From NCBI GenBank assembly GCA_031409275.1, contig JANNXA010000051.1:256001-320000 (forward strand): a stretch of DNA of 64,000 nucleotides, given 5' to 3'. Both the position numbers and the translations under genes were made by a program. This DNA comes from Planctomycetota bacterium (GTDB lineage: Bacteria; Planctomycetota; B15-G4; SIAN01). Below are positions 14,813 to 63,847 of the stretch, one piece after another (the first letter of the stretch is position 1; each line of letters opens with the position of its first letter). A model generated the notes under the pieces. The model saw nothing but the letters and a program-made list of their open reading frames with translations. It was not told the origin of the DNA and made no database searches.

Positions 14813-15046
14813 TCAGCTCTTGGCGAGCTGGAGCAGCCGCTGCGGGTTGAAACCCACCAGCATCTGCCCGTCGATCACGATGGTCGGCGTGCTCATCGAC
14901 CCGAGGGCCATCAGCTCTTCCGCCGCCTTCTCGTCGACCGTCACGTCCTTCTCGACGAACGGGATGTTCTGCTGCGATAGAAACTCCATCGCGCGGTGGC
15001 ACGGGGGTCAGCCAGGCTGGTGGTAGACGACGATGTTCTTCGCCAT
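14813..15046 (-). CDS. Selenocysteine-containing glutaredoxin/NrdH-like redoxin (U-P-P-C), copy 1; not in the ORF track
   Basis: Translates MAKNIVVYHQPG-U(TGA 15010-15008)-PPCHRAMEFLSQQNIPFVEKDVTVDEKAAEELMALGSMSTPTIVIDGQMLVGFNPQRLLQLAKS. It is 58/77 identical by hand alignment to copy 2, with TGA exactly at the N-terminal Cys, and has a downstream SECIS-like hairpin. Confidence 0.9.
14974..14992 (-). promoter_or_regulatory. Bacterial SECIS-like hairpin of the seleno-glutaredoxin
   Basis: GCGAUGG-AGUUU-CUAUCGC is a 7-bp stem starting 16 nt after UGA. It depends on AT-ending codons TTT and CTA, whereas the Cys paralog uses TTC CTG and lacks the stem. Confidence 0.75.
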
Positions 15047-56497: not shown

Positions 56498-57771
56498 CTA
56501 TTCGTGCCGCAGCGCCTCCACCGGATCCATGGTCGCCGCGCGCCATGCCGGGTAGAGCCCGAACACGATCCCCACCACCACCGAGATCACGAACGAGAGC
56601 ACGTAGCTCTCCTGCGTCGGCATCGGGTGGAGCTTCGGATTGATGGTCGGCACGAGGACGCAGATCACCCAACCGAGCGACATGCCCAGCACGCCGCCGC
56701 CGCCCGCGAGCACGACGGTCTCGACCAGGAACTGGGCGACGATGTGCTTGCGTTTGGCGCCAAGCGCGCGCCGGATGCCGATCTCGCGGGTGCGCTCGGT
56801 GACGGTGGCGAGCATCACGTTGGTGATGCCGATGCCGCCGATCAGCAGCGAGATGCCGGCGATCGCGCCGAGCACGCGGTTGAAATCCTTCTTGGTCTCC
56901 TCCGCGTCGCGAAGCAGCGACAGCGGCACCACGACCTCGTAGTCGGCCTTCGTCTTGTGCGACGCGGCCAGCATCTCCTTCAGGACCGCGGCGGTCGCCT
57001 CGACCTTCTTCACGTCGGTGACGCGCACCTGCAGCTGATGGAGCTCGACCTGCTCCATGTCGCGGCTTCCCGACGAGACCTTGACGATGATCTCGCCCCA
57101 ATACTGGCGGACGGTCGTCAGCGGCGCGTAGACGTCGCGCGAGAGGTCCTCGATGGTGCCCTGGTCGTCGCCCGTCAATGCGGTGCGCGGCAGCATCACG
57201 CCGACGACGCGGAATGCCTGCGTGCCGAGCTTGATCAGCTTTCCAAGCGGTTCATCGAGCGGGAACAGTTCGCGCGCGACGGTCGCGCCGAGCACGCAGA
57301 CCGGCGTGCGCGCCTGGAGGTCGACCTCCGTCACGAAGCGGCCTGACTCGAGCTTGAAGTCGTTGGTCTCGCCGAACCACGGCACCGTCCCGACGACCCG
57401 CGAGTCGGCGCGACGGTCGGCGTAGCGCGCGTCCTGGTAGATCGCGCGGACTGGAACGACGATCTGCGCGTTGGGCAGCGTCTGCTTCATCCGCTCGGCG
57501 TCCTGGTAGGTCAGTCCGTAGACCGACAGGCGCGAGCGCTCGGCTCCAGCGGAGTTGCTCTCCGGCGGCTTCAAGCTGCGCACCAGGATGTTGTTCGATC
57601 CGAGCGCCTGGATGCGCATCTGCACGTCGTGCGAAAGCCCTTCGCCGATGGCGAGCATGGCGATGACCGACGCGACGCCGAACAGCACGCCGAGGCTCGT
57701 CAGCAGCGAACGCAACCCGTGGCGGGCGACGCCGCGCAGACCGAGATGGAAGGTGCGCCACATCGCGGTGA

Positions 57772-57775
<4 letters not shown>
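56498..57775 (-). CDS. MacB-like ABC permease
   Basis: RSLLTSLGVLFGVASVIAM, SLLIGGIGITNVML, ERTREIGIRRALGA, YPA..A..DPVEALR. GTG overlaps the ATPase stop. Confidence 0.93.
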
Positions 57776-58524
<749 letters not shown>

Positions 58525-58564
58525 GGTCAGCTGCGCTTCCGCTGCTGGCTGGCGACGAGGCGGC

Positions 58565-60397
58565 TCAAGTGCCCCCCTGCGCCTTCTCGCCGGCGCCGCC
58601 GCGTCCGCCTGCCGGCGGACCGCCCGCGCCACCGCCGAACTGCTTCATCCGCTCGTCCCACGCGGCCTTCTGCTCCGGCGTCATCTTGTCGAGCATCTCC
58701 TGCATCGCCTTCTTGCGCTCCTCCTCGCTCATGCCGCGCAGCTTGGAAAAGTCGAACGCGGGCGCGGCGCCGGCGGCCGGAGCCGCGGCTGCGGCGCCAT
58801 CGCCTTCGGGACGCGCTCCCTTGGTCGGGATGGCGCCCGCCTGCTTGCGCAGATCCTCGACCGACGCGGCCGCTGCGACCTTCGCGGCCGCGGGGAAATC
58901 AGGCTGCGGCGCGCCTGGCGGCACCGAGAGGAAGACTCGCTCGCCCGGCGCCAGCCCATCGGCGATGGCGACGCGCGCGTCGTTGTGCATGCCGATCTTC
59001 ACCTCGCGCACCAGCGGCTTTCCGGTGGCGTCGGAGATGTAGACGTAGTAGCGCTCGCCGCGCCGGTAGACCGCGTGGATGGGCAGGGCGATGGTGTCCT
59101 GAAGCTCGTCGACGACGATCTCGGCGCTCGCGCTCATGCCCGGACGCAGCCCGGTGGTCGCGCCGCCGATGGTGATCTCGCAGCGGTAGACCTTGAGGTC
59201 GGGATTGAGCCACTGGTTGGCGGAGTCGGGCAGCGGCGCGATGAAGGTCACGCGCCCGACGAAGGACTGCGCGCCGGCATCGATGGTCACGAGCGCCGGC
59301 TGGTCCACCTTCACCTTGTCGACCGCCGACTCGTGGACGCTGACCGAGACGATCATCTCGGTGGTGTCGGGGAGGCTGATCAGCAGCTGGTTCTCGCGAA
59401 CGGCCGCGCCTTCCTCGACGCGGTCGCGATCGCTGCGGCCACCGCCCATGCCGCCGCCCTGGTTGACCGGATAGACGACGAGCCCGGCGGATGGCGCACG
59501 AATGGTCGTGTTGACCAACTGCGACTCGAGCAGCGCCAGCTTGTTCTGCTCGAGCTCGAAGGTCGCCTTCTTCGATTCGTAGTCGGCGACCTTCTGCGCG
59601 AAGTCAGCCTCGCAGCGCAGCTTCACGCGCTCGAGCTCGGCGCTCTTCTGCAGCACGTCGCTCTCGAGCACCTGCATCTGCCGCGGCCGCTCGAAGTCGG
59701 CGAGGATCCGCTGCTGCAGCTCCGACATCGACTTCTTCACGGTGGCGCGTTCGGCCGCGAGGCGATCGCTCTGCAGCTCGGTCTCGGCCGCGAAGTCGAG
59801 CGCCACGAGCTCGGCGGTGTCGTCGGCCTTCTGATTGGCCGCCTTCTCCTCCGACTCGGCGAGCTTCTTGTCGGAGGCGGCCTGCTTCTCCTTCAGCGGG
59901 AAGTCGCCGTCGATGTACTTGCGCTTGTCGGTCTCCGCCAACGCGAGGTCGACGGTCGCCTTCTGCGTGTCGCTGGCGTTCTTGCTCTCCTGGATCTCGC
60001 GCGCCTTCTCGGCCTGGATGAAGGCGGCCTTCGCATTCTGGAACTTGATCTTCTGAGCGGTGAGTTCGTCTTCGAGGTTGCTGGCGTCGAGCTTGACGAG
60101 GATGTCTCCCTCGTTGACGCGCACGCCCTCGTCGACGAGTTCGAGGATCGTCGCGCCCCCCTTCACCTTGCAGTAGATGTCGACCGACTTCGACGCCTTG
60201 AGCTGCCCGGACTCGACCACCGAGACGCGCAGCTTCTCGCGCGCGACCGTCGCGCTGAGCGCGAGCTCGGTGTCGACCTTGTCATCGCGCCGCCCCCACC
60301 AAAGGAAGCCGCCGACGGCGAGCCCCGCGACGACGACGAGCAGCCAGAGGATCGCCGCGCCACGGCGGCTGCGGTCGAGAGCAAGTCGATGGTCCAT
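58565..60397 (-). CDS. Efflux periplasmic adaptor (MacA/HlyD-like) with long coiled coil and Gly/Gln-rich tail
   Basis: N-terminal TM, 'EGVRVNEGDILVKLD', 'IRAPSAGLV', LRPGMSA, GLAPGERV. Confidence 0.9.
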   Translation of the reverse strand: MDHRLALDRSRRGAAILWLLVVVAGLAVGGFLWWGRRDDKVDTELALSATVAREKLRVSVVESGQLKASKSVDIYCKVKGGATILELVDEGVRVNEGDILVKLDASNLEDELTAQKIKFQNAKAAFIQAEKAREIQESKNASDTQKATVDLALAETDKRKYIDGDFPLKEKQAASDKKLAESEEKAANQKADDTAELVALDFAAETELQSDRLAAERATVKKSMSELQQRILADFERPRQMQVLESDVLQKSAELERVKLRCEADFAQKVADYESKKATFELEQNKLALLESQLVNTTIRAPSAGLVVYPVNQGGGMGGGRSDRDRVEEGAAVRENQLLISLPDTTEMIVSVSVHESAVDKVKVDQPALVTIDAGAQSFVGRVTFIAPLPDSANQWLNPDLKVYRCEITIGGATTGLRPGMSASAEIVVDELQDTIALPIHAVYRRGERYYVYISDATGKPLVREVKIGMHNDARVAIADGLAPGERVFLSVPPGAPQPDFPAAAKVAAAASVEDLRKQAGAIPTKGARPEGDGAAAAAPAAGAAPAFDFSKLRGMSEEERKKAMQEMLDKMTPEQKAAWDERMKQFGGGAGGPPAGGRGGAGEKAQGGT

Positions 60398-60451: not shown

Positions 60452-62389
60452 TCAACGTCCCTCGCCTGGCTCGGCGCTCGCGTCCGTGCCTGCATCCAGC
60501 CCTGCGTCCGGCCCTGAATCCGTGCCTGCATCCGTGCCCGCCGGCGGCTCGACCGCCGCGTCGGCGACCGGCGGCAGATCGTGCAGCGTGATGCCGCTTT
60601 CGTCGAGCTCGAGCAGCCCCATGTCGCGCCAGAGTTCGAGACGCGCGACTTCGTAGTCGACGAGCGCCTGCGTCAGCTGGTTCCTCGCGCGGTTCAAGGC
60701 ATCGGTCGCATCGAGCGCGTCACGGATCTGGATGCGACCCATGCGGAGCGTCAGCGCGGTCGATTGCACGCGCCGCTGGGCGACGGCGACCGACTCGACC
60801 GCGATGCGATGCGTCTCCCGCAGCTGCGCGAGCCGGCGCAGGCCGTTGCGCACGTCCTGCTGCAGCGAGTCCGCGCTCAACGTGACCGTGCGCGACTGCA
60901 CCTCGCGATCCAGCAGCGCGCGGCGGTAGGCGTTGCGCTCGGCGAGCTTGTCGACCGGGAGGTCGAGCGTGAGGCCGGCGCGCCAGGTCGCGTCGCCCGC
61001 CTGGGTATCGAACACGGTGTCGCGATCGGTCGGCACCGTGACGCCCGCCGACAGGTCGAGCGCGGCGCGCAGGTCGTCGGCGGCCACGTGGATGCGCCGG
61101 TCGGCGTCCTCGAGCTGTTCGACCGTGTTCAGGTGATCGAGGCGGTTGTCGAGCGCGACGGCGATCGCGCGCGTCTCGCTGAAGCGGATGGCGGGAAGTC
61201 CGGCCTCGCGCAGCCGCTCGAACTCGTCCGGCATCAGCCCCAGGTCGGCCTCGAGCGGCAACCCGAGCGTCAACTTGAAGGCGTCGATCGAGTCCTGGTA
61301 GCTGCGCTGCGCGACGATCCAGGAGTTGCGCGCGCTGAGCTCGCTCTGCACGGCCTGGTCGAGCTGGATCTGGCTGCGCCGGCCGCGCTCGGCGAGCGCC
61401 TCGGACTGCTCGCGGGAATCGATGAACTGCAGGTAGCTGCGCCGCGCGTTCTCGATCTGGTCGACCGATTGGAGCAGCCGGTAGTACTCGCTCGCCACGC
61501 GGACGGCGAACTCCTGGCGGAAGCGCTCGAACGCGCGCAGCGCGTAGACGGCGTCGCGCTCCGACTGCACCAGCGGCTCCTGCGCGATCTGCTTGCCGGC
61601 CCCCTGCAGCAACGGCTGGCTGAACGCGAGGTCGAAGAACGAGCTGGTCGAGTGGTTGGTCCCGTTGGTGAACTCGACGCCGGTGAAGCGGCGCAGCAGG
61701 TCATTGCTGAAGCGGAAGACCAGCAAGCCGCCGGAGGCGAGCTGCTGCGTGAGCGAGAACTCGGTGGCGAGCGTGCCATCGCGCTGGCGCTTGCTGCCGC
61801 CTGGCGCGCTGGTCCAGTCGTACGAGGAGGTGACGCCGAAGCGCGCCTCGAAGAGGTAGCGCTGGAACGTCACGTCGAGCGCGGCGAGGTAGACCTGCTC
61901 CTTCTGGCGCTGGAAGTCGCGGCTGTTCTCCGACGCGATCGCAAGGGCGTCCGTCAGCGAAAGCACCTTGCGCGGAAGCAACGGCGGGTCGGTGACCGAG
62001 AAAGCGACCATGTCGCTGGCGTGGCGCTGCTCCACCTGCTCGATGCGGACGGCGAGTTTCGCTCGCACGGCCTCCGTCGCATCGCTCGCTTCGCCGCTGC
62101 TGGCCGGCGCCGGCACCGGCGGAGGCATCACCTCACGCAGCTGGCGCTCCCGCTGCTCGTCCCGATGGGTGGCGAGTTCGGCCAACAACTGCTGGCGCAG
62201 GATGTCCTGCGCCTGCTCGACCGTAAAGCCCGACGCCTTGCCGAACAGGCGCTCTTCCTTGGCCTTGACGATGGCGTCGACTTCGAGGTCCGCCTCGCGC
62301 TGGTACTGCTCGGCACTGCACGCCGCGAGCGAGAGGCCGGCCATGGTCAGCCAACGCAACGAACGGAAGGAGAGCGCGGGACGCGTCAT
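60452..62389 (-). CDS. TolC-family outer-membrane lipoprotein
   Basis: Lipobox LAAC, 'LSLTDAL', 'SQPLLQGAG', 'A..NRLD', 'LDLPVD..ERNAYR', helical repeats. Confidence 0.85.
   Translation of the reverse strand: MTRPALSFRSLRWLTMAGLSLAACSAEQYQREADLEVDAIVKAKEERLFGKASGFTVEQAQDILRQQLLAELATHRDEQRERQLREVMPPPVPAPASSGEASDATEAVRAKLAVRIEQVEQRHASDMVAFSVTDPPLLPRKVLSLTDALAIASENSRDFQRQKEQVYLAALDVTFQRYLFEARFGVTSSYDWTSAPGGSKRQRDGTLATEFSLTQQLASGGLLVFRFSNDLLRRFTGVEFTNGTNHSTSSFFDLAFSQPLLQGAGKQIAQEPLVQSERDAVYALRAFERFRQEFAVRVASEYYRLLQSVDQIENARRSYLQFIDSREQSEALAERGRRSQIQLDQAVQSELSARNSWIVAQRSYQDSIDAFKLTLGLPLEADLGLMPDEFERLREAGLPAIRFSETRAIAVALDNRLDHLNTVEQLEDADRRIHVAADDLRAALDLSAGVTVPTDRDTVFDTQAGDATWRAGLTLDLPVDKLAERNAYRRALLDREVQSRTVTLSADSLQQDVRNGLRRLAQLRETHRIAVESVAVAQRRVQSTALTLRMGRIQIRDALDATDALNRARNQLTQALVDYEVARLELWRDMGLLELDESGITLHDLPPVADAAVEPPAGTDAGTDSGPDAGLDAGTDASAEPGEGR
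60482..60541 (-). repeat. Five imperfect 12-bp coding tandem repeats (AGTD/AGTD/SGPD/AGLD/AGTD) in the TolC C-terminal tail
   Basis: On + strand: gtccgtgcctgc, atccagccctgc, gtccggccctga, atccgtgcctgc, atccgtgcccgc. Confidence 0.7.
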
Positions 62390-62518
62390 TCGCACAGCCT
62401 GAGGGGGCGAGGGGGTGCAGGATTCAAGCGCGACCGTACGAGAGCCGCACGGCGCAGTTCGTGTCATTTGAACGTCATCTCGAGCGCGGACCGAAGTCAC
62501 GACCACGCCGCGCCGAAG

Positions 62519-62755
62519 TCAAGGGCGCGCGTTCGCGACCAACGCGAGGATCTCGCCCGGCTCGGGGAAGCGCTTCGTGGCGAGCTTCGAGTAGATCAGC
62601 TTGCCGTCGAGCGACACCTCGAAGCAGCCACCGTCGCTCGGAACGAGCCGCAGTTCGGAGATCTTGCGTTTGTGCGCGTTGAGGAGCTCAGCCGTCAGAC
62701 CGACGGCACGCGGCTCGTAGTTTCAGGCGGTGCAGTAGCGGATCTGCAGCAGCAT
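62519..62755 (-). CDS. SelW/SelT/SelH (Rdx) family selenoprotein, C-x-x-U; not in the ORF track
   Basis: MLLQIRYCTA-U(TGA 62725-62723)-NYEPRAVGLTAELLNAHKRKISELRLVPSDGGCFEVSLDGKLIYSKLATKRFPEPGEILALVANARP. Has the Rdx hallmarks YCxxU, GxFEV and SK..xFP, and GGAG 5 nt upstream of the ATG. Confidence 0.93.
62684..62716 (-). promoter_or_regulatory. Bacterial SECIS hairpin of the SelW-like gene
   Basis: GCCGUC-GGUCU-GACGGC (62707-62691) starts 16 nt after UGA, with a lower GAGC/GCUC stem. The GGUCU loop resembles the E. coli fdhF SECIS apex. Confidence 0.82.
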
Positions 62756-62863
62756 CGGAGCTCCAGGACGAGAGGGCGCCGGAAGGCGCGGGGCGCCTAT
62801 TCATCCCGACGCGATGCCAAGAGGCAAGCTCCGAAATCGGCGGCCTTGGCGCAGAATGGCGCG

Positions 62864-63847
62864 ATGCTCCGCGCCTTCGCCTGCCGCGTCGCCGAATCTT
62901 CCCCACCGACCGACGCGGTCGAGCGGGCGCTGCGCGACTATTCACCGGCGCAGCAGGCGTCCCTCGGCGGTGTCGCCATGGGACTCGGCCTGCTGCTCTG
63001 CTTCGCGGCGATGCGGCGCGCGCAAGGCTGGGTGGCGCGCCCGCCACCACCGCCATCGCCGCCGTCGATGGCGCAGCTGCCGGCGCATTGGCCGCCCGTT
63101 ACGCGCGCGATTGCCGGCATCGCGGTGCGCCTGGGATTCGGGCCGCCCCGCTCCTTCACGCCGGCGTTCCTGCCGCTTTGCTTCCTGGTCTGGTTTGCCG
63201 CGACGCTGCTCGGCGCCTCGCTCACGCGCGACGCGGCGAGCAGCGGTGGCGCCGGACTCACGCCCGAACGGCTCCACGCCGCCGGCTTGACGTTCCTGCT
63301 GGTCGCGGGGGTGATGATCGGATTCGTGGCGCTCTGGACGCGCCTCTTCGGCGACGGACTCGCCGATGTCGGATTGCGCCGCGCGGGGTTGCCTGGCGCG
63401 CTGGCGTTCGCGCTGCTGCTCTTCGTCTGCTTCGTGCCCGTGCAGCTTGGCGCCGTCGCGCTCGAGAGCGGCGTGCGCGGGATGCTCGACCTGCCCGCGG
63501 AGGGGCAGGCCGCGGTCGCCACGTTCGCACGGTTCCCGGAGCTGCGCCGCGACCTCGTGGTGCTGGCCGGGATCACGCTCGCGGCTCCGCTGCACGAGGA
63601 GCTGCTCTTCCGCGGCGTCTTGTGGCGCTACCTCGCGCGCCTCTTCCCGCCGGCGGCGGCGTTGGTGCTGAACGGCGTGCTGTTCGCGTCGCTGCACGAT
63701 GGCGGCCGCTTCGCCGTCTTCGTGCTGGGCGTGGCGCTGGCCTGGCTGATGCAACGCACCGGCCACCTCGCCGCGCCGCTCCTGTTCCACATGGTGCACA
63801 ATGGCGTGACGCTCGCGGTCATTGCCGCGTCGGCCGGACACGGATGA
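62864..63847 (+). CDS. CPBP (Abi/CAAX) family intramembrane metalloprotease
   Basis: EELLFRG, FASLH and HMVHNG motifs with multiple TM segments. Start uncertain. Confidence 0.85.
   Translation: MLRAFACRVAESSPPTDAVERALRDYSPAQQASLGGVAMGLGLLLCFAAMRRAQGWVARPPPPPSPPSMAQLPAHWPPVTRAIAGIAVRLGFGPPRSFTPAFLPLCFLVWFAATLLGASLTRDAASSGGAGLTPERLHAAGLTFLLVAGVMIGFVALWTRLFGDGLADVGLRRAGLPGALAFALLLFVCFVPVQLGAVALESGVRGMLDLPAEGQAAVATFARFPELRRDLVVLAGITLAAPLHEELLFRGVLWRYLARLFPPAAALVLNGVLFASLHDGGRFAVFVLGVALAWLMQRTGHLAAPLLFHMVHNGVTLAVIAASAGHG

Follow-up and report, generated by a model that had tools for sequence, protein, structure and literature searches.

A SelW/Rdx-family gene with a predicted selenocysteine codon beside a MacAB-like efflux operon in a Planctomycetota bacterium

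The minus-strand locus at 62519–62755 of the window (the whole 64,000-nt stretch of Planctomycetota DNA that we analysed) is a real gene, an ordinary member of the common SelW/Rdx family, and its internal UGA very probably encodes selenocysteine (Sec). We hold with considerable confidence that this gene, here called rdx, encodes a Sec-containing, stand-alone CxxU redox enzyme and that the efflux operon downstream of it has a predicted ECF-sigma promoter of its own. Few bacterial selenoprotein families are known to be as common as SelW/Rdx. The gene call is a correct one that standard callers would likely miss, and rdx is absent from a plain listing of the window's open reading frames at 60 aa.

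Translated with TGA as U, the frame runs from 62755 to 62519 (−) over 78 codons and a terminal TGA stop, with the in-frame TGA for the predicted Sec11 at 62723–62725 (−). The initial annotation had described a 78-aa reading frame with YCTA-TGA, GGCFEV and SK..RFP motifs, and all of these are found on the minus strand: the product carries YCTA-U-NYEP, then GGCFEV, then SKLATKRFP, and its CxxU motif is C8-T-A-U11. The plus-strand reading of 62519–62755 is an unrelated string and not a gene. A Shine–Dalgarno sequence had also been claimed and is present as GGAG at 62761–62764 (−), 5 nt upstream of the ATG; GGAG stands 3–10 nt ahead of the start in 17 of 24 homologous rdx genes, and the complementary CCUCC sits in what appears to be the 16S 3′ end. 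Nucleotide differences from the closest genome fall mostly on third codon positions (8, 4 and 21 at positions 1, 2 and 3). No signal peptide is apparent in the product by inspection, and the protein is probably cytoplasmic.

Family assignment follows from whole-domain matches over the curated cut-offs. The read-through product scores 79.1 bits against Pfam PF10262 (Rdx; cut-off 22.6, E 2.9e-22) and 64.9 bits against TIGR02174 (cut-off 34.2), both matches extending across the TGA, as well as 91.1 bits against NF041051 (SelTWH_Campy; cut-off 88). Nothing else in the genome matches Rdx. The SelW/Rdx identity proposed in the initial annotation is therefore supported, and the check that it had named, a search with the Pfam Rdx model, returned a match spanning the TGA.

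A profile built from 24 homologues matches eight sequences of solved structure, 2fa8 and 3dex foremost; E values for the SelW-related structures are 2e-17 to 7e-12. In the two alignments seen, those with 2fa8 and 3dex, Cys stands where rdx has TGA. An AlphaFold model of the product with Cys in place of Sec (pLDDT 82.5) overlays 2fa8 with a TM score of 0.91–0.92 and an rmsd of 0.9, thioredoxins ranking lower, and resembles the Cys-containing SelW-related structures 2fa8 (Atu0228), 2obk, 2oka, 3dex, 2p0g and 2ojl as a set (TM ~0.9, rmsd 0.9–1.0). These structures have the YC..C, GG.F.V and FP motifs in common with the rdx product, although they are longer (103–108 residues as deposited, against 78). 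The first strand of the model comprises residues 2–8 and is followed, near the N terminus, by the CxxU motif; the predicted fold is a minimal thioredoxin-like one with GGxFEV and FP motifs. Invariant in the 24 rdx sequences are C8, position 11, G42, G43, F45, V47, F63 and P64. Cys44 is present in 10 of 21 rdx genes and, on this comparison, is dispensable in the Rdx family.

Passages in three papers describe SELENOW-like proteins (PF10262, with CxxU) as established prokaryotic selenoproteins (PMC13188914, PMC9312934, PMC1794560), bearing out the earlier statement that SelW-like proteins are widespread bacterial selenoproteins, and one of them places SELENOW-like proteins among the most abundant marine selenoprotein families (PMC9312934). 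The rdx product matches the bacterial SELENOW-like models (PF10262, TIGR02174) over its whole length and has the same CxxU motif, with no difference of kind, whereas the neighbourhood of rdx is lineage-specific. Campylobacter SelW (NF041051; selW on CJnc60 of C. jejuni) is of similar size, but C. jejuni selW belongs to a different phylum and has its own small transcript, whereas rdx lies upstream of an efflux operon. For the C. jejuni SelW homologue, UGA read-through to full length by Ribo-seq and proteomics is described in the relevant part of PMC11955535, and a passage in PMC4607533 notes that SelW-type genes of Epsilonproteobacteria were overlooked by annotation.

The initial annotation had taken the gene as support for Sec usage in this genome, a view that depended on Sec machinery being there, and all four components by which we recognise selenoprotein synthesis in bacteria are present: SelA (E 8e-123, over cut-off), SelB (334 bits, cut-off 242), SelD (338 bits, over cut-off, and with an in-frame TGA of its own) and tRNA-Sec (76 bits, cut-off 47). 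Across 41 genomes, consisting of the source genome and 40 relatives, SelA occurs in 39 and rdx in 24, and all 24 rdx genes carry the TGA. This conservation, together with the Sec machinery, backs the reading of the codon as Sec. In one family (f2), SelA is found in 12 of 12 genomes and rdx in none, so Sec users can apparently dispense with rdx. A survey of the phylum gave an Rdx match in 100 of 251 genomes, with one TGA in 108 of 117 matches (counted as rows). Four loci (L071–L074) have TGC or TGT at the Sec position. A search for related loci by an alignment pattern with Cys at that position, which passes over TGA forms, gave four loci and is uninformative. Some relatives also carry a second, more distant Rdx-like gene with a TGA (G016:C37:31868-32098 and G035:C2:4364317-4364547), and weak second Rdx-like copies occur across the phylum too.

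Downstream of the UGA is a predicted bacterial SECIS element at 62684–62716 (−). The GGUCU-loop hairpin described in the initial annotation is there, at 62707–62691: it has a 6-bp stem and a 5-nt GGUCU loop, starts 21 nt 3′ of the UGA and, with its lower stem, folds at −14.8 kcal/mol. The E. coli fdhF element, to which it had been likened, has a loop of this kind. The hairpin fits the bacterial SECIS consensus as set out in the relevant section of PMC13188914. Its folding energy is not striking (z −0.7 to −2.9 over five cuts), and RNAalifold gave no consensus structure for the 24 rdx hairpin regions. Codon choice is more informative. In all 20 rdx genes that have the loop Gly, its codon is GGT, which serves for 14 of the other 141 Gly codons in these genes and for 10% of Gly codons across the genome; in the 21 rdx genes of families f1 and f4, Ala+6 is always GCC and Leu+9 always CTG, whereas codon choice varies at most other positions for Leu, Pro and Gly. 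This synonymous-site constraint at codons +6, +8 and +9 is the best evidence for the predicted SECIS, although the counts do not amount to a formal probability because the genomes are related. Base pair 23–31 of the hairpin appears as UA in 8 sequences, UG in 8 and CG in 6. A pair-count covariation score on our own structure is 0.139, a value reached by 1 of 500 shuffles, while sliding the structure by three columns gives 0.137.

A generic bacterial SECIS rule of loop and stem is passed by all 24 rdx genes, but of 3000 random TGA sites 75% pass as well, so we dropped it as evidence. Scanning the window against Rfam at gathering scores gave no matches, which says nothing on bacterial SECIS elements. 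At four loci (L021, L025, L028 and L029), the loop Gly is replaced by Ser, and the predicted SECIS changes register: another 6-bp stem there closes a CGUGA loop at 17 nt from the UGA. Loops of the CGUG type are also seen after several other candidate Sec codons of the source genome.

The initial annotation had called rdx the second selenoprotein of the window. Consistent with this, a 77-aa glutaredoxin-like frame at 15046–14816 (−) has an in-frame TGA in a UxxC motif and a hairpin after the TGA, and is probably the first selenoprotein that was meant; its best matches, to TIGR02196 and UXX-star models, are all below cut-off. A rough scan of the source genome assembly, which comprises many contigs, gave 32 read-through candidates, about 20 of which resemble, on inspection, selenoprotein motifs with good hairpins. 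The names attached to these are presumptive: three TlpA-like WUGPC proteins, a peroxiredoxin-like protein, an MsrA-like GGUFWG protein, an AhpD-like CxxU protein, a heavy-metal-binding-like GUSG protein and several thioredoxin-like UxxC proteins. The genome appears to be rich in selenoproteins.

The genes downstream of rdx encode a TolC/OEP-family outer membrane protein of 645 aa (tolC, 60452–62389 (−); PF02321, 81.2 bits), a periplasmic adaptor or membrane fusion protein of 610 aa (58565–60397 (−); TIGR01730, 112.2 bits, over cut-off), an ABC ATPase of MacB/LolD type (57772–58536 (−); PF00005, 114.3 bits) and a MacB-like permease with MacB_PCD and FtsX domains (56498–57763 (−); PF12704, 132.4 bits, and PF02687, 71.6 bits). 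As had been noted, tolC is co-directional with rdx and, with its ATG at 62389, separated from it by 129 bp. The TolC–MacA–ABC operon of the initial annotation is present in outline, with outer membrane protein, adaptor, ATPase and permease all matched, but its MacA component falls below the MacA equivalog cut-off and is an HlyD-type or RND-type periplasmic adaptor. The best NCBIfam match of the ATPase, to the ATPase part of MacB, is also below cut-off. MacAB-like is the safe label, because no gene passes the MacA or MacB equivalog cut-off. On the other side of rdx lies a divergent gene for a CPBP (Rce1-like) intramembrane protease (62864–63847 (+); PF02517, 62.6 bits), which adjoins rdx in four relatives as well (G001, G004, G006 and G007).

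The synteny with tolC that was proposed as a check holds within family f1 and ends there. The order rdx then tolC is found in G001, G004, G005 and G006 and holds across the family's three genera; in G007, the contig ends ~240 nt after rdx, with the start of a similar lipoprotein visible. The assemblies of G002 and G003 lack the rdx block. We do not read this as gene loss, because the CPBP neighbour is missing too and the G002 tolC contig begins inside tolC. Within f1, the divergent genes for CPBP and a gamma-carbonic anhydrase are conserved as well as tolC, making this a conserved family-level block. At the 18 rdx loci in other families of the order, tolC was not found within 1.5 kb of rdx.

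The same picture emerges from a wider sample. Pfam searches on 33 of 97 picked downstream frames assigned a family to 10, none of them an OEP; since the other 23 include wrong-frame picks, we used a six-frame TolC profile instead, on 133 rdx-centred loci (24 from the order, 29 from the phylum and 80 of 120 from metagenomes). It matched seven: five f1 genomes, a duplicate of G001 and a metagenome contig (L106) whose gap is f1-like, resembling the rdx–tolC gap of G005. The profile covers 1.5–2 kb and may miss a distant OEP, and at several metagenome loci the sequence stops within 40 nt of rdx. In the reverse test, of 30 loci around TolC relatives five have rdx, and each of these is in f1. Linkage of rdx to tolC, adaptor and ABC genes is therefore confined to a single family.

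Elsewhere the neighbours are unrelated. In family f4 (L019, L021–L033), a B12-binding radical SAM gene lies 16–81 nt 3′ of rdx in 14 of 15 cases, a tighter link than that to tolC, which could be a redox partnership or plain synteny; the source genome has no close match to this gene (best 22% identity). An NAD-dependent DNA ligase gene is found upstream of rdx in at least 8 f4 genomes. Family f5 loci differ again (a carbon–nitrogen hydrolase in L034). Among the metagenome loci (L101–L179), 29 of 80 have a phosphofructokinase motif, and pfk often overlaps the rdx stop or lies no more than 4 nt from it (−4 to +4 nt at many loci). Neighbouring genes also include those for pyruvate kinase, proline dehydrogenase and NAD kinase. 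Judged by these neighbourhoods, rdx behaves as a small housekeeping gene whose neighbours are lineage-specific. In a literature search on SelW in connection with efflux, TolC and operons, only the C. jejuni work was found, and its passages on SelW draw no such link (PMC11955535).

The gap between rdx and tolC contains GAAC-N16-CGTA at 62437–62460 (−), 47 nt before the tolC ATG. The motif, which was found after the fact, occurs in the gap of five of the six f1 loci, 29–99 nt after the rdx stop and with diverged spacers. It is absent from the G006 gap, from all 18 other loci and from the region upstream of all 24 rdx genes. By a rough gene model of 3132 genes, 13 of 137 genomic copies are intergenic and precede a gene on the same strand. 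For eleven other spacers the figure is 28 of 761 (1–5 copies each; Fisher p 0.006), and for spacers that share the codon phase it is 11 of 504 (p 0.0003). The site in the rdx–tolC gap is not among these 13. The 13 downstream frames (L220–L232) include a further adaptor, a further OEP, two S41 peptidases, an S46 peptidase, a beta-lactamase-family protein, a Vps10/BNR protein and a DUF5916 protein; the others are a methylguanine methyltransferase, an Lrp regulator, a Fis-type HTH protein and two without a family. Before orthologues of three of these genes, the strict motif recurs at 6 of 13 loci: 3 of 3 for the adaptor, 2 of 5 for S41 (two more keep AAC-N16-CGTA) and 1 of 5 for the second OEP, or second tolC (one of these has just 59 nt upstream). 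The eleven control spacers gave one hit in all.

Bipartite AAC/CGT elements at a fixed spacing, conserved in orthologues, are what we would expect of an ECF-sigma promoter. The B. subtilis sigma-W promoter, given in the relevant passage of PMC5829568 as TGAAAC-N16-CGTA, has AAC, the 16-nt spacer and CGTA in common with the gap motif, which itself has GAAC; the likeness is of form alone and implies no sigma-W orthologue. The genome has 62 sigma-70/ECF matches over cut-off, and the motif was not found in the 350 nt checked before an ECF gene near the second tolC. A sigma-70 promoter scan of 62200–63000 gave none. Because the motif is conserved in the gap, enriched before genes and sigma-W-like in form, we infer that the pump has its own ECF promoter: GAAC-N16-CGTA is likely to serve the pump alone, independently of rdx. 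It also marks a candidate ECF envelope-stress regulon, as many of the putative targets are envelope or likely exported proteins. Just upstream of the motif, at 62479–62464 (−), the stretch ATGACGT..AAATGAC is conserved in the three genomes of genus g1 and may represent a regulator site or a further promoter element.

That the TGA is a true stop, leaving a pseudogene or a 10-residue peptide, is scarcely credible: the weakness of the hairpin by energy alone is in its favour, but the same TGA occupies the second Cys position of CxxC in 24 of 24 relatives, the frame downstream is intact and shows codon-position bias, the genome has the complete Sec machinery, and the next in-frame start is codon 47, past the active site. 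Transcription of the locus leaves more room for debate. It is plausible, if on balance doubtful, that read-through from rdx carries transcription passively into the pump genes, that rdx and the pump are functionally unconnected and that the motif merely adds stress induction. The short gap agrees with this, as does the absence of a canonical (U-tract) terminator on the rdx strand between rdx and tolC (the one terminator-like match is on the other strand, inside tolC), and Rdx-family genes often abut or overlap unrelated downstream genes such as pfk. A G+C-rich hairpin that can form right after the rdx stop speaks against it, although this hairpin has no U tract and is not conserved. Such read-through is compatible with most of our preferred account and differs from it in transcript structure alone.

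We consider it unlikely that rdx opens the efflux operon and works for the pump, for instance by maintaining the proper redox state of a cargo, a sensor or a pump component. The co-directional arrangement across 129 nt, the missing U-tract terminator and the order kept in G001, G004, G005 and G006 (in G007 by the start of the next gene alone) would fit such a role. Set against them are the equally conserved CPBP and gamma-carbonic-anhydrase genes, which point to a block, the lack of tolC at the order's 18 other rdx loci, the restriction of rdx to f1 among TolC relatives and the promoter-like motif between the two genes. The link to the efflux operon suggested in the initial annotation thus comes down to adjacency in one family. 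Quite unlikely is the fuller version in which the selenoprotein would be co-transcribed with the TolC–adaptor–MacB pump and would provide a redox step for cargo or regulation in envelope-stress export.

In the preferred reading, that of a stand-alone selenoenzyme next to a separately controlled pump, established Sec biology would have SelB carrying Sec-tRNA bind the hairpin loop 21 nt downstream and decode UGA 11. Cys8 and Sec11, located where the first strand ends, would then cycle between selenenylsulfide and reduced forms, and the CxxU pair would reduce a protein or small-molecule substrate, while the TolC–adaptor–ABC operon would be transcribed from its own predicted ECF-sigma promoter. 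The role of the rdx protein is most likely one of general thiol-redox housekeeping, because rdx keeps company with different, unrelated genes from one lineage to the next.

The function of bacterial SELENOW-like members is described as unknown in a passage of PMC13188914. Since no pathway is known for any bacterial SelW protein, a real pump link would be of consequence, and if true it would give one of them a defined pathway; the evidence leans against it. Our literature search found no selenoproteome study of the phylum. The by-products of the analysis are of modest use: an rdx gene that is widespread and almost always TGA-bearing across the phylum, a genome that appears selenoprotein-rich, and a candidate ECF envelope-stress regulon.
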